From: a phage
Strand: one strand, 5' to 3'
Length of the DNA: 64,000 nucleotides
Sequence record: PZ445450.1
Position numbers and translations under genes: made by a program. Numbering within the stretch: position 1 is the first letter of the stretch; every line of letters starts with the position of its first letter. Below are positions 64-62,112 of this stretch, piece after piece. A model generated the notes under the pieces. The model was not told the origin of the DNA and did no database searches. It saw only the letters and a program-made list of their open reading frames with translations.

Positions 64-828
64 TTGAAATTCATCTACAAAGAACACTACCACAAAGGTG
101 TTGTGTGGAGTCTATTTGACGGGTCTGGTGGTGCAGTTATTGACTGGGCAAAAGCTGGGTACCTGTGCCTGTGCTTTAATGCAGAAGGTGCTGACCACGG
201 CAGTTATGCAGAGGTGATAACCGATCATCCTAACATTCACTATGTGGATTATTGGATTGACCCATGGTTCCCTCAAGAAACTTTTTGCATGTATCCAGCT
301 CCAGACTTTATTCTTGCATTTCCTCCGTGCACGCATTTAGCAGTATCCGGAGCTGCACACTTTAAGAAAAAGCTGGCTAAGGACCCACTGATCCAAATTA
401 ATGCTGTGAAAGATGCTCGGGTTGCGGAAGAGTTGGGAGAGATTTACGATTGCCCGTGGCATGTAGAGAATCCTGTAGGGGTTATGTCCACACTGTGGCG
501 AAAACCTGATTACCGTTTTCATCCTTCGGATTATGGTGGGTATTTACCGGAGGATGATGTAAACCCCTGGTTTCCTGAATTTATAGCTCCACGTGATGCC
601 TATCCAAAAATAACTTGCGGCTGGATAGGCAATGGATTTATAATCCCGGCCACAAAACCTGTCCCGCAAATAGTTGACGCGGTTAGCGGGTATTCCATGC
701 AACACGCCAAGCTGGGTGGAAAGAGTGCAAGAACGAAGATGATCCGAAGCCTCACGCCACGTGGCTGGGCAAAAGCCGTATTCTTAGCAAACGAGCCTGT
801 AGTAAGGAGCAGAATTAATGGGAAGTAA
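64..828 (+). CDS. DNA cytosine-C5 methyltransferase-like protein
   Basis: Motif I LFDGSGG, motif IV FPPCTHLAVSGA (PPC catalytic Cys), motif VI HVENPVG; start placed at TTG 64 after AGGAGA RBS because the GTG at 34 lies inside the terminator hairpin. Confidence 0.5.
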   Translation: MKFIYKEHYHKGVVWSLFDGSGGAVIDWAKAGYLCLCFNAEGADHGSYAEVITDHPNIHYVDYWIDPWFPQETFCMYPAPDFILAFPPCTHLAVSGAAHFKKKLAKDPLIQINAVKDARVAEELGEIYDCPWHVENPVGVMSTLWRKPDYRFHPSDYGGYLPEDDVNPWFPEFIAPRDAYPKITCGWIGNGFIIPATKPVPQIVDAVSGYSMQHAKLGGKSARTKMIRSLTPRGWAKAVFLANEPVVRSRINGK

Positions 829-2896
829 ATTTATGGCATCTGCATACAACCGTTTCGGTGAGCCAAACCCGAAAGCAACTAAGTATAAAAGTGGGGGAAG
901 TGTGAAACGAGACTATCGTGATGAAAAAGAGGTTGAAACTGTAGAGACTGTTTTAGAAAATACTAAAATCGTCCCTGTCCCACAACAAAATATCGGTCTG
1001 ATGGCTGCACAATATTTTGGTGTGCGATCAGCATTGTCCCAAGAAGACGGTGTGACAGTTACTGCAACATATTTCCCATATTACGACCGCTACGGAAATC
1101 TGTCCGGTTTCAAAAAGCGTGACTGGACGATTCCTAAAGAGCAAAGAGGCCATTTCTCCGTTGTTGGCATAGTAAAGGCTAACTCTCAGATGTTTGGTCA
1201 AAAGCTGTGTGCATCTTCCAACAACCGTAAGCAGATTAACGTTTGTGAGGGAGAAGGTGATGTTATTGCAGCATGGCAGGCTGCATATCAGATACAAGTA
1301 AAAGGGATTCTCACCAACGCTAAAGCCCCAGCAAAGGTGAAGCAGTGGGCTAAAGAGGTCCAGGACGGGATCGACGCAGTTATCAACGGTGGTGATCTGG
1401 CAGGAAAACCCTGCCTGCCTTTTGTTGGAATTAACTGTGGATGTGCAAACGCAGTAGATACTTTTGCAAACAATGAGAAGTTTATCCGTAGCTATGGAAC
1501 AGTTGTGCTGGCAATGGATAACGATGCAGCTAACGAGGTAGAGAAGCAAAAACACGTCATTAAAGGTGTTGAGGCTACGCACAATATCGCAGCATTTTTG
1601 ATGGCTGATAACGTTTACCACGTAGAGTACCCTGGTGAAGTAAACGATCCTGACGGTGTAAAAGATATCCGTGACATGCTGAAGGCTAAAAAGCTGGAAG
1701 ATATTGTAAACATGTTCCGGCATCCTGTTAAGTATGTACCGGATGCTGTATCGGATTTAGAAGACTTCTCTATCGAATCTTTGCGGAAAAAGACTTCCAA
1801 CGGGGTAGATATCAGCGCAGAGTTCCCAAAACTGCAAAAAATGCTAAAAGGCTTGCACAAAGGGACACTCGTAATGCTTACAGGTCCATCAGGAGGCGGT
1901 AAAACAACTGTAGCTAAAAAACTGGAACACTGTATTGCAAGATACCTAATGGACCCGACATGTCCAAAGGCTGATGATTACGAAGAGGATGATCGTCTAT
2001 GCATGATTCATCTTGAGGAGGACCCAGAGGAAGCAATTAACTCCTTGTATGCAAACCAGTTAGGGTTTGATGTTAAAGAGTTTGTTGAAGATCCTAGCCA
2101 GTTTTTAACTGATCAAGAACACGCAGAGATTCACCAATCATGGGCAAAAGCTGGAAAAATCAAAGTGTTCAAACATTTCGGGTCTATTCCGGTGGACGAG
2201 TTGATTACCAAGCTTAAGCAAATGGTTTGCCTGTACCATTGTCGTTATATTGTGCTGGATCACCTGTCCATGGTAATTTCGGGGCTTAATGTTAAGGATG
2301 AGCGAAAAGAGCTGGACATGGCTATGACCCAACTGGCTGCGTTTTGTAAGCAGTTTAACGTGTTTATCTTGGTGATCGCTCACCTCAAACGTACAGAGAT
2401 TGTGCCTCCTAAAGACAAGGATGGTAACCCGTTACCTTTCTGGTATCCTGTGCGAAAAGAGAATTTGCGAGGATCGGCTGGGCTTGAACAGTTGAGTTGG
2501 GTAGTCATAGGTGTCGAGGCCGAAGAAATGGTGGATCGTTCTCGTGGGCGTGTCCGTTTAGTAGGTCTTAAAAACCGTCCAGCAAAAACATTGGGTATTG
2601 CAGACACTTTGGTTATGGACCCACATACAGGTAAGTTTCATGATGCCAGTAATTGGTACTGGGACAAAGAAATGCAAATGTTTACAGATGGAGAAGGTGG
2701 GGAGGTTGTTTGGAGACCTCAGGCTATGTTTGAGGATCAGGAGCATGCAGTTGTAGAAACACCTATGGGCAAGGTTGTGGCTGATAAGGTTGTAACTCCT
2801 ACTGTTAAGCCTGTTGACACACAAGAAGACCTTCCGTATGATGATCCGTCCTCTGACCCTGTTCCTGGTTTTGAAGACGATGAAACACCTTTTTAA
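818..2896 (+). CDS. Primase-helicase (toprim plus DnaB/T7 gp4-like helicase)
   Basis: Toprim-like CEGEGDVIA and MDNDAANE; Walker A GPSGGGKTT; acidic C-terminus ending EDDETPF; RBS AGGAG upstream. Confidence 0.8.
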   Translation: MGSKFMASAYNRFGEPNPKATKYKSGGSVKRDYRDEKEVETVETVLENTKIVPVPQQNIGLMAAQYFGVRSALSQEDGVTVTATYFPYYDRYGNLSGFKKRDWTIPKEQRGHFSVVGIVKANSQMFGQKLCASSNNRKQINVCEGEGDVIAAWQAAYQIQVKGILTNAKAPAKVKQWAKEVQDGIDAVINGGDLAGKPCLPFVGINCGCANAVDTFANNEKFIRSYGTVVLAMDNDAANEVEKQKHVIKGVEATHNIAAFLMADNVYHVEYPGEVNDPDGVKDIRDMLKAKKLEDIVNMFRHPVKYVPDAVSDLEDFSIESLRKKTSNGVDISAEFPKLQKMLKGLHKGTLVMLTGPSGGGKTTVAKKLEHCIARYLMDPTCPKADDYEEDDRLCMIHLEEDPEEAINSLYANQLGFDVKEFVEDPSQFLTDQEHAEIHQSWAKAGKIKVFKHFGSIPVDELITKLKQMVCLYHCRYIVLDHLSMVISGLNVKDERKELDMAMTQLAAFCKQFNVFILVIAHLKRTEIVPPKDKDGNPLPFWYPVRKENLRGSAGLEQLSWVVIGVEAEEMVDRSRGRVRLVGLKNRPAKTLGIADTLVMDPHTGKFHDASNWYWDKEMQMFTDGEGGEVVWRPQAMFEDQEHAVVETPMGKVVADKVVTPTVKPVDTQEDLPYDDPSSDPVPGFEDDETPF

Positions 2897-2954
2897 TGTT
2901 TAACCAAGAGTGGGAGGGGTAGTACAACCGCCTCCCCTTTAAGGAGAACACTTT

Positions 2955-5732
2955 ATGAGTATGTATAGCTTCGATTTTGAGGCCTCTGGGCTTTTGGAAG
3001 ATCCAGACCTTTATTATCACTGCGGCCTGTTTAAAGCGTTGAATAAGAACCGTTTTATGCTGTTCCTTCCTCTGAATGACCGCACACACTACTCCGAGGA
3101 GGATATAGAAAAGGCTAAGAACTTCATTCTGGCAAAGAAAACTCTTTATAAAGATTTTGAAGTTCGCATAGCAGATTTTTCGGAGTTGGAAGGTTGGCTT
3201 ACAGGCAATTCTGACTGGTCACCAACAGCTTTGAACTGCCATAACTGCTACAGTTATGACTTTATGCTAATGGAAAGATTATCCGGTATTCATTTTGATA
3301 TGTTCCGTGATCCTAAATGCATGGGGACTATCAACGACCACCAGGTTAACCTGTTTGATACGTTGGCTATGAGCCGAATCTTGTGGCCTGATCGCCCTTT
3401 ACCAAAAGGTTGTCCGGACGCTGTATTCAACCCGGTTACTAAGAAAATGCAACCTGTTGGTCCTCACGGCCTTATGGCATGGGGCTACGCCCTTGGTAAC
3501 CAGAAAGTTCAAATTGATGACTGGCGCGATCTTCCGCTGTGGAAATATGTGGATCGTGTGTTCGAGGACGTTATCATCCAGGAGTTGCTCTGGAAAGAGT
3601 TGGTAGCGGAATCAAAAGGTGTATTCTACGGCAAATCTGACATGCAGAACTTTATGTATGACCCTGCCAAAGAGAAGCCTAAAGGATTCAAGAAGATTAC
3701 CTGGAAGAATGCATTACGCCGAGGCATGCTGCAGCATTTCCTGATGGAGTTGCAGGCTCGACAGGGTGTGTATTTCGACATAGATGGGGCTATTGCTTTA
3801 CGTGACCGCTGCGATGCGTGGATGAAAGAGATCGCTGATCGTGTTGAACCACAACTTCCTTTAAAAGAGTTATCAATGTCTCAGCGGCCTAAGTTCCCTG
3901 AAAAGCCGTTTAACCAGGATGGGACAATCTCCAATAATGGTTGGAAATGGTTAAAAGACAAGCTTGGCTACCCTGTGGACATGAGTGCTTTAGAATTCAA
4001 AGCTCCTCCTAAGCGAGCATTTACCTCCACAGGAGATGTCAGTAAGATGGGGATAAAATGGTGTGAAGAGATGGGCTGTAAAGACCCTGATAAGATGGCG
4101 GATTTCTTGAGGGGCTATATCAAGGGCACCTCCACACCACAACCTTTACCTAAAGAGCTAATGGATCAGGCAATAAGCGATCTACAGCAGAAGCGAATGC
4201 CTGACTGCAAGATACCTATGAAAATCAGCAATCAGGACGATATTAAGCGATACCTGATCAGTGCTGGTTGGCTTCCGACAATGTGGAGAACTAAGGATGT
4301 AACTAAAGACAGCAAGAAGAAAGCTCTACCTGATGCAGATGTTGATGCACGAGTGTATGCATATATGGACGAGCTTTTAGAGTCAGAGTATTGTGACCTA
4401 ATTATCAACTTCTGGAACAAAACTGATGCTAAGTTCCAGACAACCGTGCACAAGTTCCGAAGCTTTCCTAACTCCGAAAGGATTAAAAAGGAAGTATTCG
4501 GGAAAATACGTAGAAAAGCTAGGGCACTTATTACTTCTCCGCAACTGAAAGATACGTTTGGACACCTATGCCCGAATCTTGAAAAATTGAACGGAGAGAT
4601 GGCTAAAGATATCGTCTTGTGGTTATCATTGCGAAACCGCAGATCGGTCCTTGATCCAATCAAGGAGGATAAGGTTGATACTGGTCTTCTTAATCACCCA
4701 CGTTTGAAGATTGACCATAAGCTTCCTGCTAAAAGTTCTGGATTAACAAACACTTCCCGACAGAAACACAGTATTTGTGCAAACATGCCTAAACCATCTC
4801 CTAAAGTGGTTATGGGTAAAGAGATGCGTAGTCTGTGGGGTGTTCCTCCAGGATACTTTGAGATCGGTATTGACGGGTCCAACTTAGAGCAGCTTATCGG
4901 GGCTTGGGGTGCCTTTGAGTTCGACAACGGCTTGTACTATGATGTTGTAAGTAACGGAGACGCACACCAAAACAATGCTGAGGCATATACAAAAGTAGCA
5001 GGCAAAGAGGTGTCTCGTAACGACGGTAAACCTATCACGTATGGGGTTATGTACGGGGCACAAAAAGATAAAGTTGCAGATATGCTGGATATCTCCCCAG
5101 AGTTGGGGCAAAGGGTGATCGATGCACTTTGGGATGCCAACCCCGGTCTTAAGGGGCGCAAAGAGGATCTGGAGAAATTCTGGGAAGCAACAGGTAAGAA
5201 GTTTATCTACTCTTTTGATGGTCATGCTATCTGGACCCGATCTAAACACTCTTTACTTAATGCATACCAACAAAATGGTGGTGCATCGCTGTGTGACTTA
5301 GTTGGGATACTCATGCACCACCAAATGGTGAAGCGTGGGTGGTACGATGAAGGTGTCCGTCGTATTATTTATTACCATGATGAGTACCAACTTCAGGTCC
5401 CTGACACACCTAAGTATAAGACTGTGTACACCTTCGACACAATTGAAGAATTGGAAGCATTTAAGGCAGAGCAGGAGGCCAAACTTCATGTGTTCGACGG
5501 TCATAAGTACAAAAAGGCACGCAAGGATGAAAACGGAAACGAAGTGGTTGACAGAGACGGAAACACGGTGTACGATCCTATCCTGAACGATGACGGAAAG
5601 CTTGAACTTATCTGGAGCCCTGTGGGTGAAATGGTGGTGCATTGCTTCTGGCAAGCTTCTAAAATGATGGGCGTTCCATTCCAGATCACAGGTGAATACT
5701 TGTGCGGTCGTAACTGGGGTGATTGTCACTAA
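2955..5732 (+). CDS. DNA polymerase, family A, with 3'-5' exonuclease domain
   Basis: Exo I FDFEASG; motif A IDGSNLEQL; motif B RNDGKPITYGVMYG; motif C YYHDEY; RBS AAGGAGA. Confidence 0.9.
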   Translation: MSMYSFDFEASGLLEDPDLYYHCGLFKALNKNRFMLFLPLNDRTHYSEEDIEKAKNFILAKKTLYKDFEVRIADFSELEGWLTGNSDWSPTALNCHNCYSYDFMLMERLSGIHFDMFRDPKCMGTINDHQVNLFDTLAMSRILWPDRPLPKGCPDAVFNPVTKKMQPVGPHGLMAWGYALGNQKVQIDDWRDLPLWKYVDRVFEDVIIQELLWKELVAESKGVFYGKSDMQNFMYDPAKEKPKGFKKITWKNALRRGMLQHFLMELQARQGVYFDIDGAIALRDRCDAWMKEIADRVEPQLPLKELSMSQRPKFPEKPFNQDGTISNNGWKWLKDKLGYPVDMSALEFKAPPKRAFTSTGDVSKMGIKWCEEMGCKDPDKMADFLRGYIKGTSTPQPLPKELMDQAISDLQQKRMPDCKIPMKISNQDDIKRYLISAGWLPTMWRTKDVTKDSKKKALPDADVDARVYAYMDELLESEYCDLIINFWNKTDAKFQTTVHKFRSFPNSERIKKEVFGKIRRKARALITSPQLKDTFGHLCPNLEKLNGEMAKDIVLWLSLRNRRSVLDPIKEDKVDTGLLNHPRLKIDHKLPAKSSGLTNTSRQKHSICANMPKPSPKVVMGKEMRSLWGVPPGYFEIGIDGSNLEQLIGAWGAFEFDNGLYYDVVSNGDAHQNNAEAYTKVAGKEVSRNDGKPITYGVMYGAQKDKVADMLDISPELGQRVIDALWDANPGLKGRKEDLEKFWEATGKKFIYSFDGHAIWTRSKHSLLNAYQQNGGASLCDLVGILMHHQMVKRGWYDEGVRRIIYYHDEYQLQVPDTPKYKTVYTFDTIEELEAFKAEQEAKLHVFDGHKYKKARKDENGNEVVDRDGNTVYDPILNDDGKLELIWSPVGEMVVHCFWQASKMMGVPFQITGEYLCGRNWGDCH

Positions 5733-5781
5733 TGTAAACTATCAGCACAGGGAGGTGCTGTTGAGCAAAGAGGAGACTTTT

Positions 5782-6066
5782 ATGGTAGTAGAGCCAACAA
5801 AAACATTTACATCCATGACCATTCCTGTTATTATGCAGGTGGAGTGTGTTCAGGTATCTCAAGTGTGGCCTGGCACCAAAATCCCAACAGGGCCTGATTT
5901 CTTTCAGGTTGGGAAAGTGTACAATGTCTGGAAGGCACCAGATTGTTACCCTTTCATTAAAGATGACCGTGGGATGCTGTGGTATCTTGGAAATGACTTG
6001 ACACTGCACCTTGGGAATGCTATTATTGCAGTATTCAGACTTAACAAGAAGGAGACCGATCAATGA
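5782..6066 (+). CDS. Hypothetical protein
   Basis: ORF with AGAGGAGA RBS; start refined to ATG 5782. Confidence 0.5.
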   Translation: MVVEPTKTFTSMTIPVIMQVECVQVSQVWPGTKIPTGPDFFQVGKVYNVWKAPDCYPFIKDDRGMLWYLGNDLTLHLGNAIIAVFRLNKKETDQ

Positions 6067-6290
6067 CGACTTTGGTTAAAGCTACCTTTGTAGAAGAAAA
6101 GATGACAGACCTGTCATTCTTTAAAGAAGGAAAGACCTACGAGGTTTATTACGATAAAGCTCGTGCAAACAAAATGATTAAAGACGAGGAAGGGGTTGCC
6201 TGGTATATCTCTCACCTGGCAAACGGTGAGTATCATATCTACGGAACCACTTTGCTTGCCAAGTTTGTAGTTGTTGAAGAGGACCTATGA
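6063..6290 (+). CDS. Hypothetical protein
   Basis: ATGA start/stop overlap with upstream gene (translational coupling). Confidence 0.5.
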   Translation: MTTLVKATFVEEKMTDLSFFKEGKTYEVYYDKARANKMIKDEEGVAWYISHLANGEYHIYGTTLLAKFVVVEEDL

Positions 6291-6481
6291 AAGTAAAGTA
6301 TCTTGCTGAAGGTATGAATAGGTATTTTACCCTTGGTGAAGAATATTGGCCCTTTACAAACAACGGTGATGTCTACGTGAAAGATAATTTCGGCACGCCG
6401 TGGTTTCTGCACTCTAATGGGCTGGGATACTCCATTTACTGCGGTGCAGTGAACAACACAACTCTTGCAGAGTTCGTTTAG
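6287..6481 (+). CDS. Hypothetical protein
   Basis: ATGA overlap coupling. Confidence 0.45.
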   Translation: MKVKYLAEGMNRYFTLGEEYWPFTNNGDVYVKDNFGTPWFLHSNGLGYSIYCGAVNNTTLAEFV

Positions 6482-6491
6482 AGGAGGTAGG

Positions 6492-6863
6492 ATGTTAGTA
6501 AAAGGTACCCACACAGTCAAACAACGTATTGAAGTTGAGATTGATGATTGTGAGCTGAAGCATATTTTACGGTCATGCTCCAACGTTTTGCTCCTTAGTA
6601 TTCTCCAGGAGCGAGCGGAGAACGAGTTCTTAAATGCACTGGCAGGCCGCCCTGGTGATTTCTGTGTGCGTAAGCGTGGTGACAACAAGTCATGGCTGTG
6701 GGAGATAGACGCAGAATGGGATTACCATAAAAATGAGGGTATAGATGAACCTATTCGTGAATTGACGGACAACGAGGTTCAGATGTACAATGAAGTTTGT
6801 CAGTGGGCAAAAAGTCAACAAACTTATCTTGATCCTTGGTGGATGATCGAAAATAGTCGTTGA
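6492..6863 (+). CDS. Hypothetical protein
   Basis: GAGGAGGTAGG RBS before ATG 6492. Confidence 0.5.
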   Translation: MLVKGTHTVKQRIEVEIDDCELKHILRSCSNVLLLSILQERAENEFLNALAGRPGDFCVRKRGDNKSWLWEIDAEWDYHKNEGIDEPIRELTDNEVQMYNEVCQWAKSQQTYLDPWWMIENSR

Positions 6864-6886
6864 CAGGAAGTAAGATTAGATATAAG
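6860..6886 (+). promoter_or_regulatory. Sigma70-like promoter
   Basis: TTGACA, 15 nt spacer, TATAAG. Confidence 0.4.
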
Positions 6887-6939
6887 ATGCTTCACACAAA
6901 CAGAGCGTTGATTGTTTAACACTTAAGGAGACCGCTAAG

Positions 6940-7194
6940 ATGAAAATTACTCTGAAGCCAGAATGCGTTGAAAATGACCGAGCTTTTAAAGATTGCACAA
7001 TCGGTGCAATTTATGAAGCAGAGTTTTGTGAGAACCCTTTGGTAAAAGCCCTTCTGGAAGAAGGAGCTCCTCTATCACAGGAAGAGCTTGATGAGTTGGA
7101 AAACTCAGCACAGTGCCTTACCTTTAAAGATGATGAAGGAGACTCTGTCTGGTGCACTGTTAATGAAGTAGTTTTTGTAAAACCTGAACATTAA
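6940..7194 (+). CDS. Hypothetical protein (tandem paralog A)
   Basis: AAGGAGA RBS; shares AF.DCT...DD.GD..CT pattern with next gene. Confidence 0.55.
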   Translation: MKITLKPECVENDRAFKDCTIGAIYEAEFCENPLVKALLEEGAPLSQEELDELENSAQCLTFKDDEGDSVWCTVNEVVFVKPEH

Positions 7195-7197
7195 TGC

Positions 7198-7226
7198 TTG
7201 ACAACAGTCATAGGGCTTACTATAAT
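7198..7226 (+). promoter_or_regulatory. Consensus sigma70 promoter
   Basis: TTGACA, 17 nt spacer, TATAAT. Confidence 0.6.
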
Positions 7227-7257
7227 GGCCCTATCAAAACGAAAGGGGACCACAGCA

Positions 7258-7530
7258 ATGACCAAACAATATCAACGAATTAAAGCCAAGGTTAAGCCAG
7301 ACTATCTGGAGAAGGACTCTGCTTTTCGGGACTGCACAGCTGACAAAGTTTACACAGGGGCCGTCCTGTTGAACGATGAACTTGAAGTAGATATTCTGGG
7401 TAAAGAGGCCACTATTAAGGACGACCAAGGCGATTATGTTTGCTGCACCACACGTGAGCTAGAAATCTTAGAATACTTCGGTGAAATCTTCACCTCTCTT
7501 GATGATTACTTAGATGATGAGGAAGCGTGA
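7258..7530 (+). CDS. Hypothetical protein (tandem paralog B)
   Basis: Start refined to ATG 7258, downstream of the promoter at 7198. Confidence 0.5.
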   Translation: MTKQYQRIKAKVKPDYLEKDSAFRDCTADKVYTGAVLLNDELEVDILGKEATIKDDQGDYVCCTTRELEILEYFGEIFTSLDDYLDDEEA

Positions 7531-7919
7531 TGAAAAATATTTGGGATATCGATATCTTTGAAGCCTCTAAGCTTGATGGTGCTGATGGAGTGATTATGGT
7601 GTCTGATGGCAAGGCAACACTAACTTCCGGAGATATCATCTATGCCTTGGACGAGCTGGCGCTTCTGAAATCTACCGGTAACACTTTAGAGGAGCGTCTT
7701 CAAGGCTTCGCCTTCAAAGAAGGCACAAATACCGCCATGATGTGCACCACACGGACAGTTCAAGTTGGTAACGGTGTCTATATGATCATTGCTGTGTGTC
7801 CTAAATTCAGCAACGTCAACAAAGATGATGCTGACGCTGTCAACGATGTGGTTGTTCTCTTCGTGGGTGACGCTATGGCAGATCTGATGAATGCAGGAGA
7901 AGCAGCAAATGAAGACTGA
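7527..7919 (+). CDS. Hypothetical protein
   Basis: ATGA coupling; 130 aa ORF. Confidence 0.5.
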   Translation: MMKNIWDIDIFEASKLDGADGVIMVSDGKATLTSGDIIYALDELALLKSTGNTLEERLQGFAFKEGTNTAMMCTTRTVQVGNGVYMIIAVCPKFSNVNKDDADAVNDVVVLFVGDAMADLMNAGEAANED

Positions 7920-8211
7920 AAACATCACCCCCGCAGGGTTCTTAAAAGTATACCGTGAACTGCTATATACTACAGAGGACAGTGTTCTAGAGTATCCAGA
8001 ATATCTTTTGCTGTATAAGTATCTGCAGGAGGCTGGTGAAAATCTGCCAGTTAGTGCAGAAGGTGGTCCGAACTGGATATACAGCGCATGGAGAAAGGTT
8101 GACATTCTCCCCGACCCAGGTAAAGATATGGTAGTTTGGCAGCTTATTAACAACATCGGGATTCCAATCTTTGATGAAGCTGTTAAAATCTATTTTGAAC
8201 TTGACGATTAA
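7909..8211 (+). CDS. Hypothetical protein
   Basis: AGGAGA RBS before ATG 7909. Confidence 0.45.
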   Translation: MKTENITPAGFLKVYRELLYTTEDSVLEYPEYLLLYKYLQEAGENLPVSAEGGPNWIYSAWRKVDILPDPGKDMVVWQLINNIGIPIFDEAVKIYFELDD

Positions 8212-8228
8212 TATCAGGAGACCTTAAG

Positions 8229-8474
8229 ATGACTGAAGTAGTTGCTCGCGCAGGACAGAAAGTACGTTGTGTTGAAGTAGGTTTTGGTGGCAAAGGGTGT
8301 CAAAACTTGACTCAAGGTAAGGAATACGCTGTTATTTCTGGTGGTGGCGACGAAAGTATTGTGTTCGAGGGCCACATCCTGGATGCTGAAAACTTTGAAA
8401 TCTTTGACGACGATGGGGATCCGATCACCTGCCTGCTGGACGGGAATTGGGGAACTTTCGAAGTGATTGGCTAA
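8229..8474 (+). CDS. Hypothetical protein
   Basis: CAGGAGA RBS. Confidence 0.5.
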   Translation: MTEVVARAGQKVRCVEVGFGGKGCQNLTQGKEYAVISGGGDESIVFEGHILDAENFEIFDDDGDPITCLLDGNWGTFEVIG

Positions 8475-8557
8475 CAAATACCTATTGTAATTTACAGAAG
8501 GAGATGCTAAAATAGTGTCTCCTTCTATGTTGTTCAAATAAAATCGGAGATTCCATA

Positions 8558-8923
8558 ATGGAACAAATGAACGATCAAGCGTCGGTTGCGATGAACGAGC
8601 AAGAACAACCTCAAGAATTTTTCTTAGGGTTAAGTAAAGATCAAGTGTCTCTTTTGCTAGTGCTTTCTTCTTTCATGGGAAGACTTCAGGAGCTCACACA
8701 ACAACCGGAGGCTGAACAATTATTTCAGGCTCTGCGTGAAGAAGAAAAATATCGTCGTTTGGACTATGCCTTAGGTTGGGTAGCTCAACAACGAGATATG
8801 CTGATGGCCCTCTCTGGGACCACAAGTTTTGCAATGGGCCTGTTGGCTCAAGTTCAGGACAAATTAATTCAAGCAGGGTTTGCACACACGGCAAACACTA
8901 ACGAAGAACAAGGAGACAAATAA
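8558..8923 (+). CDS. Hypothetical protein
   Basis: GGAGA RBS. Confidence 0.5.
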   Translation: MEQMNDQASVAMNEQEQPQEFFLGLSKDQVSLLLVLSSFMGRLQELTQQPEAEQLFQALREEEKYRRLDYALGWVAQQRDMLMALSGTTSFAMGLLAQVQDKLIQAGFAHTANTNEEQGDK

Positions 8924-10152
8924 TGAGCGTTATTCAACAATTCGCTAACCCGATGAATCCGCGTGAAACTGTTTTACTGGCTCACGGCATGATTAAACGC
9001 GTCAGCATCAAGCCTATCAAAGGTGCTGATCCTACAACAGGTATTAAAACCACTGTGTGGCAAGGTAAGAAAATTGAGTCCAGCCACACCATCTCTTTAC
9101 TGATTTCTGAACTGGATTCCTCTGATAACCTGCTTCAAGGTGGTGAAGAAGTCTGGATCAGCATGGGTGATAAACTGCTTAAACCGGGTCATCAAGACTC
9201 TGTCTCTGTTAAGATTGATGACAAGTGGGAAACCGTAACGCCAGGATGGATCGTAAATATCCCTTTGAAGGCAAACGAGCATAACGGTAAGACCTACTAC
9301 AAAGGCTCACTGGCTAAGATGGTTAAGCTGGGCGCAGGAGAGGCTCCAGCAGCGACTCAGCAGCAAAAACAGCAACAAGGTGCACAATCACAAGGCCAGA
9401 AGCAGAAACCTCAGCAGAATGCCAATCAGGACGTTTTACGCATCTATGGTGATGTGACTCAGATTGTTGGCAACGTGGTTACTGTAAATGACCACAAGAT
9501 TGGCGAAGGTGCTATGGTTGTAACTGATGAGCAGCTTAAAGACCTGGTGGTAGGCGGTCGTGTTGCAGCCATTGTGGACAAAGACACCGGAAACATTATC
9601 AGTGGTTTCAAAGCCTACCCACCTAAGGCAGAGAACGGCACTCAAGGCCCTGGTGGCAAGCGTAAATCCTCTTACGACCCTATTGGTGTGGAGACGGGGC
9701 ATAGCATCAATGCGTTGCAGATCATCCTGGATCGTGGGTTTAAGGTAGACGACCCACTAGGCGTGGCTAAAACACTGCACGTAGTCACCATCGAGCTTAA
9801 GAAAGAGTATGCTCAAGCCACCAACCGAACTGAAGATGAAGTAGGTGCCAGTGTCGGTAATGCGGTGTTGAACGCTTGTCGCCGTATTGACAAGAAAACG
9901 AAAGTTGATGATTTTGCAGCGGCAATTACTGCAGAAGCAAAAGATGTTTTGACTAATCTGGCTGAGCCGTTGTACGATTGGATCAAGAACGGTGCTGAGT
10001 CCACTGACCATCAAGAACCTCAAGCTGCCAAACAGGAAGAAGCCGCTCCACAGCAAAACACTGTAGACGCCCCTCCTGTAAATGATGAGGAAGATGACCC
10101 GATGGATCAGAATCCAGCACAGTACGCCTTTGATGATGACATCCCTTTTTAA
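8923..10152 (+). CDS. Putative ssDNA-binding protein with host-SSB-like acidic tail
   Basis: Gln/Gly-rich linker and C-terminus DDDIPF, identical to the E. coli SSB tip; the N-terminal fold is not verified. Confidence 0.5.
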   Translation: MSVIQQFANPMNPRETVLLAHGMIKRVSIKPIKGADPTTGIKTTVWQGKKIESSHTISLLISELDSSDNLLQGGEEVWISMGDKLLKPGHQDSVSVKIDDKWETVTPGWIVNIPLKANEHNGKTYYKGSLAKMVKLGAGEAPAATQQQKQQQGAQSQGQKQKPQQNANQDVLRIYGDVTQIVGNVVTVNDHKIGEGAMVVTDEQLKDLVVGGRVAAIVDKDTGNIISGFKAYPPKAENGTQGPGGKRKSSYDPIGVETGHSINALQIILDRGFKVDDPLGVAKTLHVVTIELKKEYAQATNRTEDEVGASVGNAVLNACRRIDKKTKVDDFAAAITAEAKDVLTNLAEPLYDWIKNGAESTDHQEPQAAKQEEAAPQQNTVDAPPVNDEEDDPMDQNPAQYAFDDDIPF

Positions 10153-10167
10153 CATCTAGTCAACATG

Positions 10168-10198
10168 GCCCTGCCCGAAAGGGTGGGGCATTTTTGTA
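10168..10198 (+). terminator. Rho-independent terminator
   Basis: Same hairpin as at 19-46, followed by a T-tract. Confidence 0.65.
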
Positions 10199-12317: not shown

Positions 12318-12345
12318 TTGACATCTGAAAACTGCAGTGTATAAT
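12318..12345 (+). promoter_or_regulatory. Sigma70-like promoter
   Basis: TTGACA, 16 nt spacer, TATAAT. Confidence 0.55.
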
Positions 12346-12376
12346 ATACGCATAAACTAACAGAGAGCGATGTATT

Positions 12377-12568
12377 ATGGTAATTTTTAACCGAGATGGT
12401 ATCATAGTTAGACAGCACCCGTTCCTTGAATACTATCAAATTGAGCAATGGTGCTACGGGGATTGCAGTCACTCCTATGGGCAAAGTTGGGGATACCGTA
12501 CAGTTTTTGAATCCACAGACCTTGACAAAGTAAGACAGAAAGTTTTAGAACTTATTAACAACAAGTGA
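12377..12568 (+). CDS. Hypothetical protein
   Basis: ORF downstream of the promoter at 12318. Confidence 0.45.
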   Translation: MVIFNRDGIIVRQHPFLEYYQIEQWCYGDCSHSYGQSWGYRTVFESTDLDKVRQKVLELINNK

Positions 12569-12575
12569 GTATGAT

Positions 12576-12908
12576 ATGGTAACATTGGAAAGACGTAAAG
12601 CTATCGCCGCCACACTGGCAGACATCTTTTGGGATTGCAACTTAAAAGATACCAGAAATTGTGGCGCATCTGTAGATGTATTATTCTCACGGCCCACCAT
12701 TGTTGCAATGGGAAACCTGTTAAACGTAGTGTACGGAGCATGGGATAAAGAGGGTGGATTTTACATCTGGCAACCTGACTACGGGACCTGGAAAGAGGTA
12801 AGGGGTGCGGATGACTTTGGGCCTGCAGCTGCTAAGATGGATGGCTGGCAAATTTATGTTGGAAACGACATGAAGCTGAAAGGCGAGATTGTTTACTGGT
12901 TACCTTAA
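12576..12908 (+). CDS. Hypothetical protein
   Basis: 110 aa ORF with weak RBS. Confidence 0.4.
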   Translation: MVTLERRKAIAATLADIFWDCNLKDTRNCGASVDVLFSRPTIVAMGNLLNVVYGAWDKEGGFYIWQPDYGTWKEVRGADDFGPAAAKMDGWQIYVGNDMKLKGEIVYWLP

Positions 12909-12928
12909 GAGAATGCAGGAGATAAAGT

Positions 12929-13174
12929 ATGAACAAAGGGTGGACATTTGTAGACGGCGTTAAAAACATGCCTCTAGGGAAGTATATTGTAGCCATGGCA
13001 GATGAGAATGGCAAGGTGGATTTCGGAGTTTGCGAGGTTGTTCTTGCAGGATCTGGTGACTATGCTCACAAAACTGGGATAATTAACGGTCATTTCTACT
13101 TTGATTACAACCCTGTTGTGGCGTATATGGCTATGCCAGAGTTAGAGCTCCCAAAGGAGGGTGCAGATGTTTAA
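12929..13174 (+). CDS. Hypothetical protein
   Basis: CAGGAGA RBS. Confidence 0.5.
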   Translation: MNKGWTFVDGVKNMPLGKYIVAMADENGKVDFGVCEVVLAGSGDYAHKTGIINGHFYFDYNPVVAYMAMPELELPKEGADV

Positions 13175-27837: not shown

Positions 27838-28053
27838 TCAGTCCAGTGGTTCATCACCTACTTCACTGAAATCAATGTTCATGGTCTCCTCCCAACCATC
27901 AATCTCAGCACCAGAGTAGAGATCTTTAGGACTTACTCCCAAAGCCTCAGCAACAGAGTCTATATTTAACACCTCTGGCAGGTATGATTCATCGAATTCA
28001 AGGTAAATCAGGCCACGAGTGTTGTCAGCTCCACCAAATATTTCTATCTTCAT
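27838..28053 (-). CDS. Hypothetical acidic protein
   Basis: GAGGAG RBS before the internal ATG (MKIEIFGG...); start refined from the ORF track. Confidence 0.45.
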   Translation of the reverse strand: MKIEIFGGADNTRGLIYLEFDESYLPEVLNIDSVAEALGVSPKDLYSGAEIDGWEETMNIDFSEVGDEPLD

Positions 28054-28173
28054 GAAATCTCCTCTGGAAATGAGAATGTGAACAGGGTTTATATGTTCCA
28101 ATGCACTGGAATTATGCACGTTTGCCTCTTCAGGCCATGCTTTAGCATGAGGAACCTGTGTGGGCTCGGTGCT

Positions 28174-28386
28174 TCATAGTCTACCACCTCTGAACTCTTC
28201 GTGCTCAGGCATAATAGAGAACCAGATATCTACGATGTCTTCCCACGTTAGGTCATCAGCCTCAGGATCTACCTGGAGCGAAGATGGAGAATCTTCAGAA
28301 TTGAAGTTTTCCTCTTGCACTGGCTCAGTCAAGGGACATATAGTCACTCCTTTGGATGTCTCTTCAGACGCATGTGTGGTAGTCAT
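28174..28386 (-). CDS. Hypothetical acidic protein
   Basis: ATGA-coupled to the upstream small peptide. Confidence 0.4.
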   Translation of the reverse strand: MTTTHASEETSKGVTICPLTEPVQEENFNSEDSPSSLQVDPEADDLTWEDIVDIWFSIMPEHEEFRGGRL

Positions 28387-28484
28387 GTTCCACCCGTGAG
28401 TATTCCGGCAACAGCCGCTATGGAAGTAATGATCATCAGGATCACCACTAAAACTTCAGACAATGTTCTCATTGTGTATTCCAT
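28383..28484 (-). CDS. Small TM peptide (33 aa)
   Basis: GGAG RBS; hydrophobic; promoter immediately upstream. Confidence 0.35.
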   Translation of the reverse strand: MEYTMRTLSEVLVVILMIITSIAAVAGILTGGT

Positions 28485-28504
28485 ATTCTCCAAACTGTGT
28501 GTGG

Positions 28505-28533
28505 ATACTATCACGGGAGCGGTAATGTGTCAA
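28505..28533 (-). promoter_or_regulatory. Sigma70-like promoter
   Basis: TTGACA, 17 nt spacer, TAGTAT on the - strand. Confidence 0.45.
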
Positions 28534-28691
28534 CAGCAACGCCGCGAGGGTTTGGTTAAAATCCGAGCGTATGGTGATTTGGGTCAAAACGGACGTGCGT
28601 TCTCGCTACGCTCGAAAGAGAGGTTTGTTTATAGACCGTCCTTAAACGCTCTGTAACGAGATTATCTGTCCAAGGTATGCAATCGTGCACC

Positions 28692-28722
28692 AGATAAAGA
28701 AAAGGACGCCATAGAGCGTCCT
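28692..28722 (-). terminator. Rho-independent terminator
   Basis: ggacgctctatggcgtcc followed by ttttctttat on the - strand. Confidence 0.6.
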
Positions 28723-28752
28723 AGGTGTCTTAAATTTGATATTTTGCTATAC

Positions 28753-29046
28753 CTATGAGGGCTTATCAAGGTTGGAGTAGCTGAAAGGTGTCAAAAGGTG
28801 ATTGTCAAAATCTCTCAAACTGTCCAGATCTTTTTCCTCGTCCTGACACCATCTGTGCCTACATTTATTGTTGTAGTGCATAGAATGCATAGCGTTCTGC
28901 AACTTAACAGGCACAAGTGATTCAGGAGTGGATAGTATTGTTGGGTATGCCAGAACCACCTCAAATAGTGGGAACACATCGAAACTAAAGTCTACCTCTG
29001 CAGAGGTTGATGGCATGTAGGAGTATTTAGCCGCCTTTGTAGACAT
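28753..29046 (-). CDS. Hypothetical protein
   Basis: GAGGTGG RBS. Confidence 0.45.
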   Translation of the reverse strand: MSTKAAKYSYMPSTSAEVDFSFDVFPLFEVVLAYPTILSTPESLVPVKLQNAMHSMHYNNKCRHRWCQDEEKDLDSLRDFDNHLLTPFSYSNLDKPS

Positions 29047-29054
29047 AATCCACC

Positions 29055-29381
29055 TCACACAGGTTTGATAATACCTTTACCGAATAATTCTTCGTATCTA
29101 ATCTTATCCGGATCCCACTCCTGGATAATTTCGAAGACAATATCCAACCCAGGGATAATCACTTCTCCAGTGTCAAGTTTGGCAAGAACAAAACCAGAAG
29201 GCTGAATGGTTTCCCAGTTGCGACGATTGGAATAGAAGACCTCGAAAATATCACCGACCTTGATCTGTTGATCAAGATGTTCAAGATTCTCTTTCATATA
29301 GATGCAGCGGATTTTTCGTGCAGGCCATAGACCGCCTGCATCACGTTCATTTAGTTCTTTTACAGTAATCGGTATACCCAT
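29055..29381 (-). CDS. Hypothetical protein
   Basis: 108 aa ORF. Confidence 0.5.
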   Translation of the reverse strand: MGIPITVKELNERDAGGLWPARKIRCIYMKENLEHLDQQIKVGDIFEVFYSNRRNWETIQPSGFVLAKLDTGEVIIPGLDIVFEIIQEWDPDKIRYEELFGKGIIKPV

Positions 29382-29399
29382 CTCAAATCTCCTTCATGG

Positions 29400-29427
29400 A
29401 TAGTAAAAGAGGGGCTTGGGCCCCTCT
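29400..29427 (-). terminator. Rho-independent terminator
   Basis: agaggggcccaagcccctct followed by a T-tract on the - strand. Confidence 0.6.
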
Positions 29428-29433
29428 TTGTCA

Positions 29434-29739
29434 TTATTCTACAGAGCGTTTGAACAGAATGTCTGCCTCAGACATGTGCTCAACCTCTTCTTCGATTTTA
29501 GCTCGACGTTTTTCAGCCTCATAGCGAATATCGAACTCGGTAGCCACCAGAGATTTGATGAATTTAGGAGAATACAGATGATCCTGCTTCTCAACAAGAA
29601 TGATATCCTTGATGGCATCTTTCAGATCTTTAATCTGAAGCTGGAGTTCCACCAGTTCTTCGATTGTTTTGCGAAGGCGATCACGTTCTGCAGTGTCAGA
29701 AGGAAGAGAGGTGAACAGTTCAACTTTAGATTTAGCCAT
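29434..29739 (-). CDS. Coiled-coil protein
   Basis: GGAGAC RBS; charged heptad-like sequence. Confidence 0.5.
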   Translation of the reverse strand: MAKSKVELFTSLPSDTAERDRLRKTIEELVELQLQIKDLKDAIKDIILVEKQDHLYSPKFIKSLVATEFDIRYEAEKRRAKIEEEVEHMSEADILFKRSVE

Positions 29740-29767
29740 AGTAGGAGTCTCCTTATGTTGTTTTAAA

Positions 29768-30019
29768 TTAACGTTCTACAAAAATACCATTCAGTTCAAT
29801 AACCAGGAATTTCTGGTCTTCACTATCGTCTCGTGCCAGTACCTCACAGACGTATCGGTCATCCCCATCATCATCGCAGTCAAATACAAGACTGAGGACT
29901 TTATCATGGTAAACCTTCGCCACTACCGCCTCGTAAGTATTGCCGATTGTGAATCCAAGATAATCTCCGATGCATTTGACAACAACATGGTCTCCAGCAT
30001 TTAAGTCAATCTTTGTCAT
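29768..30019 (-). CDS. Hypothetical protein
   Basis: AAGGAG RBS before the internal ATG. Confidence 0.45.
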   Translation of the reverse strand: MTKIDLNAGDHVVVKCIGDYLGFTIGNTYEAVVAKVYHDKVLSLVFDCDDDGDDRYVCEVLARDDSEDQKFLVIELNGIFVER

Positions 30020-60699: not shown

Positions 60700-61583
60700 T
60701 CAAGTATCTCACGGCGTTCCTGCTCCAGGAGGCAGTTCCACACATCTTCTGTGTAATTGCTACGAATGAAGTTTACCATGCCATAAAACTCTTCGTCAAT
60801 ACGTTTAAAGATATCATCATCCCAAATCTTCCAAGCTTTACCCCTCATTACGGCCTTCCGTGCCAAATAGTATGGAGACTTGATCTTCAGCTGCAGGTCA
60901 TAAGGGTAGTAAGGCTTACGGATCATATACCCTTCGCCCCTTGTTTCTGCAGCTAATTCTTTTGCATAGCTGAACGGGATTTCACGCACAGTGTGAGGAC
61001 GTTTTGCACCAAGGTATTTGGCAATTCCATCTAAAGCTGCTTCTGGTAGCATTATTCCAGAATCATTATATCTGCAACCTATCAAATATGCGCCATGGTC
61101 TTCTTGAACAATATGCGGATCTGAAGGGTGACAAATTTCAAACATGAATGTCATGTTTTCATTGCCCATAACCTTCTTGATAAGATCTAAATTACCACAT
61201 TGCTCTTGGATGGTTTCCTTTGCAAGGTTACAATATGGAGAATCAAGAGACCCGGTTGTTGAGAACAATAGGTCACCTTTATGAGATGATACCACACCAA
61301 GGAATCCGTTCTTTTTCTCTACCGCAGTCACAAGCTTATTGTCAGGCAGGTTGGTGGAGTTTTCTCCCAAGTTAAACACTTTTGTGAAGGGCCATGCCAC
61401 AACATTTCCTTCATTACCTACAACAATGCCTCGGCACTCCAGTAAACGAGGGGACAAATGCCATAAATTGTTGTAAAATACTTTTCTAGCATATTTATAG
61501 ATCTTTAACCCGAGATCTGGGTAATACCTACTGGTTACAAGACCTTTGTCAACTAGGTCGTCTGCATTAAAATACTTCATCAT
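60666..61583 (-). CDS. RNA ligase-like nucleotidyltransferase (Rnl2-like motifs)
   Basis: Motif I VEKKNGF (KxNG), motif IV EGYMIRKPYYP, motif V LKIKSP, compared with T4 Rnl2 EKIHGTN / EGYVLKP / IKCKN; GAGGA RBS. Confidence 0.55.
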   Translation of the reverse strand: MMKYFNADDLVDKGLVTSRYYPDLGLKIYKYARKVFYNNLWHLSPRLLECRGIVVGNEGNVVAWPFTKVFNLGENSTNLPDNKLVTAVEKKNGFLGVVSSHKGDLLFSTTGSLDSPYCNLAKETIQEQCGNLDLIKKVMGNENMTFMFEICHPSDPHIVQEDHGAYLIGCRYNDSGIMLPEAALDGIAKYLGAKRPHTVREIPFSYAKELAAETRGEGYMIRKPYYPYDLQLKIKSPYYLARKAVMRGKAWKIWDDDIFKRIDEEFYGMVNFIRSNYTEDVWNCLLEQERREILDCYFHNEDYMQ

Positions 61584-61701
61584 ACGTTCCTCATTTGTCA
61601 TTTTGTCAGTCTATCCTGTCACACAAATAACCTAGTGTCAACACTTGAAATTAACAAAACAGTTAGATATACTATCGTTGAAATTAAAACGGAGGGTCAC
61701 T

Positions 61702-62112
61702 ATGTCTAAAATGCTATATATCGTGCGTGGTCTACCAGGGTCTGGCAAATCAACACTGGCAAATGCGCTATCTTTAGAGGGTCTGTATCCACATTTTGAG
61801 AAAGACATGTTCTGGTATGACGATGACGGCAATTACAACTGGGATGCAAGTAAAGTAACACTCGCAGCGAAATGGTGCAAAGATAACGTAGAAGATATGA
61901 TGCGTATGGGATACGACCGTATCGTGGTAAGTAATACGTTTACAAAAGAAAAACATGTGCAGGAATATGTTGACATGGCAATCAGTCATGGGTATAGTTA
62001 TACCGTGATCGTGGTTGAAAACCGCCACGGTAATAAAAGCATTCATGATGTTCCAGACAAGGTTGTGGATCGTATGGAACGCCAGCTTAAAAACTGCATT
62101 AAACTTAAATGA
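61702..62112 (+). CDS. Polynucleotide 5'-kinase (T4 Pnk kinase-domain-like)
   Basis: P-loop GLPGSGKST; VVSNTF matches Pnk IISDTNL; VPDKVVDRMERQL matches Pnk VPIDVLRSMYKSM; GGAGGG RBS. Confidence 0.7.
   Translation: MSKMLYIVRGLPGSGKSTLANALSLEGLYPHFEKDMFWYDDDGNYNWDASKVTLAAKWCKDNVEDMMRMGYDRIVVSNTFTKEKHVQEYVDMAISHGYSYTVIVVENRHGNKSIHDVPDKVVDRMERQLKNCIKLK

Follow-up and report, generated by a model that had tools for sequence, protein, structure and literature searches.

The closest described parallel to the locus studied here is the replisome of T7, in which the acidic, Phe-terminated tails of gp4 and gp2.5 bind basic patches of the polymerase gp5 and compete with each other. T7 tails end in D-F, and the front basic patch of gp5 that receives the acidic tails consists of K587, K589, R590 and R591. 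A second parallel comes from SSB-Ct pockets, which recognize the Phe side chain of the tail tip, its α-carboxylate and the run of Asp residues. Among phage proteins, SPP1 G36P is an SSB with a host-type tail that blocks host replication, and the tail of HK620 SSB recruits a partner. Tail–OB self-interaction has also been described, for both E. coli SSB and T7 gp2.5.

We analyzed a window of 64,000 nucleotides (record PZ445450.1) and assigned it to the genome of a Vequintavirus, an rV5-like coliphage. Polymerase, primase-helicase, ligase and exonucleases are all phage-encoded, and the T7-type replication module is composed of a primase-helicase, a family A polymerase and a 409-aa protein with a predicted OB fold. 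Besides the 409-aa protein, no second SSB was found in the genome. Only two of the window's 476 mechanically called ORFs with 40 aa or more end in PF, namely the primase-helicase and the 409-aa protein. An acidic tail with a final F is similarly rare, occurring in three of the window's 253 ORFs with 60 aa or more, the third of which encodes the NrdB subunit. The features of the region are listed below.

818–2896, + strand: T7 gp4-type primase-helicase, TOPRIM plus DnaB-like helicase, 692 aa (PHROG 239, E = 2e-160; Pfam DnaB_C, AAA_25)
2714–2893, + strand: acidic C-terminal tail of the primase-helicase, last 60 aa, pI 4.05 (tip FEDDETPF at 2870–2893)
2955–5732, + strand: family A DNA polymerase, T7 gp5-like, candidate tail receptor (PHROG 8888 and 17; Pfam DNA_pol_A)
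8923–10152, + strand: 409-aa SSB-like protein (PHROG 4477, E = 5e-172; without a Pfam match)
8923–9342, + strand: domain 1, aa 1–140, all-β OB-type barrel, pI 8.8, predicted ssDNA-binding domain
9343–9429, + strand: Q/G/P-rich disordered linker 1, aa 141–169 (pLDDT < 50; composition)
9430–9630, + strand: domain 2, aa 170–236, small barrel (mini-OB), order β1-β2-β3-α-β4-β5 (predicted secondary structure)
9670–9996, + strand: domain 3, aa 250–358, four-helix bundle (predicted structure; alignment)
9997–10149, + strand: disordered acidic tail, aa 359–409, pI 4.05 (pLDDT < 50; tip FDDDIPF at 10129–10149)
10149–10150, + strand: empty homing site, occupied in 32 related phage records
10168–10199, + strand: intrinsic terminator-like hairpin and T run, closing the transcription unit

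The primase-helicase consists of a TOPRIM primase fused to a DnaB-like (RecA-fold) helicase, the architecture of the T7 gp4 type. T7 gp4 is also its nearest sequence in PDB (E = 4e-16); the alignment brings the TOPRIM motifs EGEGD and DND into register. The N-terminal Cys4 zinc-binding domain is absent: the first 130 aa contain no Cys, the first one being residue 131, and upstream extension of the ORF is impossible. Two CxxC motifs within the first 120 aa were found in none of 120 primase-helicase homologs. At its other end the protein finishes with ...DPVPGFEDDETPF, the last residues being GFEDDETPF. The final F is kept in 115 of the 120 homologs, and the 48 distinct tails, all F-terminal and 45 with P at −1, give the consensus tip D-x-D-[DN]-D-[TES]-P-F.

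The only PDB sequences matched by the polymerase were those of T7 gp5 (E = 7.5e-16), and its DNA_pol_A score of 32.5 bits lies slightly below the Pfam cut-off of 34.3. In the alignment, the T7 front basic patch KWKRRW stands opposite a gap and KK (polymerase residues 748–749), leaving the patch half conserved. The initial annotation had reported the FEDDETPF ending, which the ORF at 818–2896 bears out, and had invoked T7 as a precedent for acidic Phe-terminated tails acting on the polymerase. That precedent agrees with the literature; the gp4- and gp5-like helicase and polymerase and the conserved tails support its extension to this phage, in which docking on the polymerase is a prediction.

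The 409-aa protein has the same sequence as QXV77779.1 (Escherichia phage EduardKellenberger), which carries the UniRef name 'Single-stranded DNA-binding protein', and members of its family are labelled hypothetical in nearly all GenBank records. The 'SSB-like' label in the initial annotation was its reader's guess. The PHROG 4477 profile matches over the full length (E = 5.3e-172, residues 1–409 against profile positions 1–393). We also considered the 409-aa gene and the upstream 121-aa gene (PHROG 7310) as a conserved pair and dropped the idea, as PHROG 7310 was not detectably conserved beside the phAPEC8 homolog.

An OB fold had been suggested for the N-terminal domain, and fold prediction returned one, with SSBs as its best structural matches; at the level of the model, domain 1 appears to adopt an SSB/PriB-type OB fold. 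Foldseek of the 409-aa protein against PDB gave no significant match (4klk, E = 0.11, was weak), and in BFVD a comparison with the gp2.5-type fold returned weak matches to DUF2815 and a 'phage ssDNA-binding domain' (E = 0.012–0.08). Domain 2 gave local Foldseek matches to the OB domains of IF1, RPA and the proteasome, and is missing from shorter family members (P0055–P0058). Domain 3 is the best-conserved part of the family (G259, H260, N263 and G312), and distant homologs align chiefly to residues 235–390.

Sequence searches reached the bacterial SSBs through the tail. A Pfam search of the protein found neither PF00436 nor DUF2815 (PF10991), the NCBIfam model TIGR00621 matched the tail alone (E = 0.47), and phmmer and hmmsearch (97-sequence profile) against PDB gave tail matches only. 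When the family profile was aligned with E. coli SSB by hhalign, only the last 12 columns were aligned (Prob 92.7%, E = 4e-7). NCBIfam and PHROG SSB models thus match nothing but the tail, and, judged by sequence homology of its N-terminal OB domain, the protein is not a member of the bacterial SSB family. Because it combines an OB fold whose top matches are SSBs with an OB–linker–acidic tip layout, and because the genome holds no other SSB, it probably fills the otherwise vacant role of single-strand DNA-binding protein in this phage.

The C-terminus of the 409-aa protein is ...NPAQYAFDDDIPF, with the tip encoded by TTT GAT GAT GAC ATC CCT TTT TAA at 10129–10152, and that of E. coli SSB (identical to PDB 1eqq/4mz9) is ...SNEPPMDFDDDIPF. 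The common stretch is FDDDIPF, residues 172–178 of E. coli SSB, one residue longer than the DDDIPF match previously noted. By a rough estimate from residue frequencies, an exact seven-residue C-terminal match would arise by chance at about 1e-9 per protein. After homing-endonuclease extensions were trimmed, 121 of 123 distinct family tails ended in F and 118 had P at −1, and about 120 distinct tails gave the consensus D-[FW]-D-D-D-[ILV]-P-F. Since the tails of both proteins are conserved family-wide, chance or composition is ruled out as their origin.

The exact host hexapeptide varies even inside the genus. In a 15-member sample of the 90%-identity cluster, FDDDIPF occurred six times, FDDSIPF three times and FCDDIPF six times. 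Distant members match the E. coli SSB tip over 11–14 residues (EPPMDFDDDIPF). The copied host tip belongs to a protein family that is large and old, and is not a recent adaptation of this phage. To see whether the tip follows that of the host SSB, we looked for relatives in other hosts. Cultured relatives all infect Enterobacterales, and tblastn of three distant members (tips PPF, LPF and VDF) against cultured phages returned enterobacterial phages only. A GTDB genome scan yielded one Succinivibrio MAG contig, and an IMG/VR census of tip variants by DNA pattern one contig; a wider family alignment contained no stretch conserved enough for use in scanning.

Thirty-two records of related phages carry a 642-bp homing-endonuclease element at the precise junction of the Phe codon and the TAA stop. 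It adds 14 residues after the final Phe of the 409-aa homologs (APVGLQYGKSRIHAL), which abolishes the free α-carboxylate of the terminal Phe. About a quarter of sequenced relatives bear the insertion, all of them viable isolates, which shows that growth does not require a free tip. The claim of an exact host-tip copy is correct for this phage and does not extend to near-identical phages with other tips or to the capped quarter of relatives. We examined the 14-aa extension as a functional motif and rejected it; its conservation is explained by overlap, in another frame, with the conserved N-terminus of the endonuclease.

The reading that we favor, with somewhat better than even confidence, is that the 409-aa ORF encodes the replicative SSB and that both tails dock the T7-like polymerase. 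What the analysis directly supports is the presence of both tails and their conservation, the OB fold as a prediction, the setting in a T7-type replisome and the lack of another SSB. The scaffold would be a non-canonical one, in which an OB barrel, linker, mini-OB and four-helix bundle precede a long disordered acidic tail ending in what reads as the bacterial SSB-Ct motif D-F-D-D-D-I-P-F, and the acidic tip of the primase-helicase, D-D-E-T-P-F, is related to it. The T7 analogy makes it most likely that both flexible tails bind basic surfaces of the polymerase through charge and the terminal Pro-Phe, and each may dock on the other protein as well. Such docking would serve polymerase loading and exchange at the fork and the transfer of ssDNA from the SSB to the polymerase. 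T7 gp4 and gp5 are the nearest relatives of known structure for the helicase and polymerase, which makes T7-like docking the best reading of the tails; because the phage tip matches the host tip, the SSB tail can very probably also engage host readers of SSB-Ct, and it could plausibly recruit host SSB partners or compete for them. We infer ssDNA binding by the 409-aa protein, as well as every tail–partner contact. The tip match would be a sensible variation on a known theme.

A tail directed mainly at the host is the strongest competitor, though a clearly less probable one. It would recruit clients such as RNase HI, Topo III, DnaG, PriA, ExoI and RecQ to phage ssDNA, or titrate them off host SSB and cripple replication and repair. 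The tip identity, seven residues here and 11–14 in distant members, exceeds what generic electrostatic docking needs, the NCBIfam and PHROG SSB models match the tail alone, and the Phe side chain, α-carboxylate and Asp run are all read by SSB-Ct pockets; SPP1 G36P and HK620 SSB supply precedents for blocking the host and recruiting a partner. However, a phage with its own polymerase, primase-helicase, ligase and exonucleases has a doubtful need for host clients, near-identical phages differ in the tip (DDSIPF, CDDIPF), and variants with a capped tip are viable. It is improbable, in our view, that the T7-type replisome has instead been rewired to the host SSB 'socket', with homing endonucleases landing on P-F-stop ends and turning the tip off. 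If it had, the tips of the helicase and novel SSB (D-D-x-P-F) would plug the fork into the host SSB interactome, ExoI, RecQ and PriA could be sequestered or, since the phage primase lacks a zinc finger, host DnaG borrowed, and the endonuclease family would target the conserved 'P-F-stop' terminus of either coding sequence.

Nor do we give much credence to tails acting chiefly in cis, folding onto their own DNA-binding surface to tune affinity or cooperativity while partner docking is secondary. The basic domain 1 (pI 8.8) facing a strongly acidic tail (pI 4.05) is consistent with such folding, as is the self-interaction reported for E. coli SSB and T7 gp2.5, but charge shielding alone leaves a near-invariant terminal Pro-Phe in two unrelated proteins unexplained, and AlphaFold2 places the tail against nothing (pLDDT < 50). 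Least probable of all is a replication accessory (a loader, mediator or decoy) that carries an SSB-Ct tip while host SSB coats phage ssDNA. SSBs are the top structural matches, OB plus disordered linker plus acidic tip is the SSB layout, the genome has no other SSB, and T7-type replisomes rely on their own.

Assignment of the 409-aa protein as a replicative SSB would give a likely function to a gene that is annotated as hypothetical across several hundred genomes of Vequintavirinae, Stephanstirmvirinae and related phages, many of them phage-therapy candidates. It would also predict a docking code, an acidic run plus Pro-Phe, common to helicase and SSB in a T7-type replisome, and relatives that differ by the tip-capping insertion offer a natural on/off contrast. 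Phage SSBs trigger several defense systems (Retron-Eco8, DARNA, Hna and AbpAB), so knowing the SSB gene in BASEL-collection phages would be practically useful.

Compared with the T7 replisome, this phage has detectable homologs of gp4 and gp5, and both its helicase and its probable SSB bear disordered acidic tails with a terminal Phe. Unlike those of T7, these tails end in P-F, the bacterial SSB-Ct type; the primase lacks the zinc-binding domain of gp4, the front basic patch of gp5 is conserved only in part, and no sequence relationship between the 409-aa scaffold and gp2.5 could be detected; the fold matches of this scaffold to DUF2815 are weak, and it has two extra domains. The protein shares its last seven residues with E. 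coli SSB and, like it, places a disordered linker, Q/G/P-rich or acidic, between the OB domain and the acidic tip, but beyond the tail it has homology to neither PF00436 nor TIGR00621, and it spans 409 aa with three folded domains. SPP1 G36P and HK620 SSB likewise end in residues that resemble the host SSB-Ct and that bind a partner or act against the host; they are clear bacterial SSB homologs, whereas the 409-aa family is not and would work with a T7-type rather than a host-type replisome. The same family (OB, helical bundle, tail) also includes the phAPEC8-type 'SSB' of Stephanstirmvirinae and the other members of PHROG 4477. With about 295 aa these proteins are smaller and have no domain 2; the SSB label is already attached to a few of their records, and their tails are identical to the last 11 residues of E. 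coli SSB.

More than 100 rV5-like coliphages (Vequintavirus), such as MaxBurger (MZ501093), match positions 818-10152 at 97-98% DNA identity. Across this region, about 20 'Campylobacter phage' records (MG0656xx) share 96-97% identity with rV5-like phages of E. coli, and their host labels look wrong.

Genes of region 818-10152 and the adjoining hairpin
Within the region: Dcm-like methylase
818-2896 (+): primase-helicase
2955-5732 (+): family A polymerase
Same region as the polymerase and 409-aa ORF: ten small ORFs, function unknown
8558-8923: 121-aa ORF, PHROG 7310
8923-10152 (+): 409-aa ORF, encoding the SSB-like protein
10168-10189: terminator-like hairpin, 3′ of the 409-aa ORF

Upstream of the 121-aa ORF lie a promoter-like site and a hairpin of 14 bp (8485-8526). 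The stop of this ORF and the start of the SSB-like gene share one base (8921-8925), which points to a coupled unit of two genes that ends at the 10168 terminator. Beside the phAPEC8 homolog, the 121-aa protein showed no detectable conservation. GC skew is positive to about 28 kb and then negative to about 61 kb, with sign switches at about 28000-30000 and 61000-62000 that agree with the coding-strand switch between divergent gene blocks.

Both acidic tails could be read from the window as first described, with the primase-helicase ending in ...PGFEDDETPF and the 409-aa protein in ...AQYAFDDDIPF. E. coli SSB ends in ...SNEPPMDFDDDIPF (checked against PDB 1eqq/4mz9); the identity with its tip proposed in the initial annotation was borne out, but it covers the last seven residues rather than six. 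Among all ORFs of the 64-kb window, only these two proteins carry a C-terminal PF. The sole other acidic F-ending tail, that of the ribonucleotide reductase small subunit (PF00268; 42247-43395, minus strand; ...NDAEEEIWEF), is presumably the R2 tail already known for binding the large subunit, with no relation to those of the replisome.

The 409-aa family was assembled from a word-indexed search, which gave 58 proteins, and an exhaustive search, which gave 110 representatives at 50% identity. Nearly all full-length members terminate in an acidic run followed by [ILV]-P-F, giving the logo D-[FW]-D-D-D-[ILV]-P-F over 123 distinct tails, and in distant members the C-terminus is EPPMDFDDDIPF, which corresponds to the final 11-12 residues of E. 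coli SSB. Primase-helicase homologs were F-terminal in 115 of 120 cases, down to about 43% identity and with Vibrio phages included (logo D-x-D-[DN]-D-[TES]-P-F). Position -2 differs consistently: the SSB-like protein has a hydrophobic residue there, the helicase a polar one. The logos make the two tails variants of one motif, and their family-wide conservation shows them to be functional features.

The 409-aa protein is identical to QXV77779.1 (Escherichia phage EduardKellenberger) and matches PHROG 4477 ("unknown function"; E 5e-172); we found no Pfam domain in it and no sequence relative in the PDB. AlphaFold2, run on a 27-sequence alignment, gave a model with a mean pLDDT of 73.5.

Predicted organization of the 409-aa protein (AlphaFold2 model)
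aa 1-140: domain 1, all-beta barrel
aa 141-169: disordered linker rich in Q/G/P
aa 170-236: domain 2, beta1-beta2-beta3-alpha-beta4-beta5, mini-OB
aa 250-358: domain 3, four-helix bundle
aa 359-409: disordered acidic tail

Across the family, conservation is highest in the four-helix bundle (window 9670-9996), with motifs GVETGHxxN and VGASVGNAVLNAC and near-invariant G259, H260, N263 and G312; the bundle had no structural or sequence match and could serve as an oligomerisation or partner site. Searched against the PDB, the family profile (97 members) matched E. coli SSB through the tail only, and hhalign of the two aligned the final 12 columns alone (Prob 92.7%, E 4e-7). The bacterial SSB tip is therefore carried on a scaffold without detectable homology to bacterial SSB.

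The complete MaxBurger genome contains no annotated SSB, and phmmer with E. coli SSB found no match among the ORFs of that genome or of the window, which leaves the 409-aa gene as the sole SSB candidate in both. The label 'SSB-like' holds up as far as computation can show. At the locus of a very distant member (P0058, 276 aa), a Toprim primase-helicase is followed by a 699-aa protein, probably the polymerase, then small ORFs including a T7 gp5.9-like gene, and the SSB-like gene. A T7 gp5.9-like gene (RecBCD inhibitor family, PF25708) abuts the SSB-like gene, immediately upstream, in a distant relative (L010 9837-10001). In phAPEC8-like and KP2025 phages the SSB-like gene likewise lies near a polymerase or exonuclease gene. 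A few records (phAPEC8_ev052, EF1-1, KP2025, JLBYU08, ESCO37), as well as UniRef, already use the name SSB; a full-text literature search returned no paper containing both 'Vequintavirus' and 'SSB'.

In 32 phage records, MaxBurger among them, a 642-bp element encoding a zinc-finger homing endonuclease separates the last Phe codon precisely from the TAA stop, which is reused as the stop of the endonuclease ORF.

Insertion sites and elements
Window 10149/10150: empty insertion site
L001 (MaxBurger) 12330-12971: inserted element
L007 (Salmonella phage NINP13076) 1484-1972: related element

The element adds 14 residues, APVGLQYGKSRIHAL, to the SSB-like protein, and these residues are conserved because their coding sequence, read in a different frame, overlaps that of the endonuclease N-terminus. 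In NINP13076 (Seunavirus) and in the metagenomic proteins P0178 and P0188, this junction and a related endonuclease N-terminal module follow the primase-helicase end ...DDDTPF; the segment appended at SSB-like or primase-helicase junctions is about 14-15 aa (AP[IV]GLQY...), and the stop codon of the interrupted gene is reused. A second arrangement occurs in phage bov11CS3 (L008 324-914), where a related endonuclease lies downstream of an intact ...DDSIPF-stop; homing endonucleases thus have a hot spot at the 3′ end of the SSB-like gene. The bov11CS3 endonuclease has a different N-terminus and begins 8 nt past DDSIPF-TGA, and an HNH gene abuts the distant homolog P0054 (L011 11161-11670). In a 15-member sample, the five capped proteins, those with the terminal Phe extended (representative P0001 plus four listed members), all carry CDDIPF in place of DDDIPF. 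Phages with a capped protein are ordinary isolates, so growth does not require a free Phe on the SSB-like protein. Possibly the helicase tails are redundant, host SSB compensates, or the cost is tolerated by a selfish element.

The interpretation in the initial annotation is supported in part, and its parallel with T7 stands as far as computation reaches. The nearest solved relatives of the primase-helicase and polymerase are T7 gp4 (E 4e-16) and gp5 (E 7.5e-16), with Twinkle as the only other. In T7, a front basic patch and a thioredoxin-binding-domain patch of gp5 bind the acidic tails of gp4 and gp2.5, which compete with each other; in gp2.5 the terminal Phe is indispensable. On this analogy, the best-supported model is that both tails would dock on the polymerase as in T7; they may also dock on each other. 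Polymerase-side support is weak, since T7 KWKRRW aligns with a gap plus KK in the window polymerase. The primase-helicase has intact TOPRIM motifs (window 818-1210) and lacks an N-terminal Cys4 zinc-binding domain (its first Cys is residue 131), which was found in none of the 120 homologs. Many homologs (P0172-P0174, P0213-P0261) are about 975-1025 aa long; past the Walker region they carry an insertion, about 300 aa in size, that has no Pfam match and is probably an intein.

SSB-Ct pockets recognise the Phe side chain, its alpha-carboxylate and the Asp run. Because the tip is the same as the host SSB-Ct, the SSB-like tail could plausibly engage host SSB clients, and competition for the host SSB interactome is a reasonable hypothesis. 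Two phage SSBs whose tails resemble the host's offer precedents: HK620 SSB, with Sak4, and SPP1 G36P, an inhibitor of host replication. Overall, the system varies on known kinds, pairing T7-type tails with the bacterial SSB-Ct motif on a multi-domain SSB scaffold that is new.
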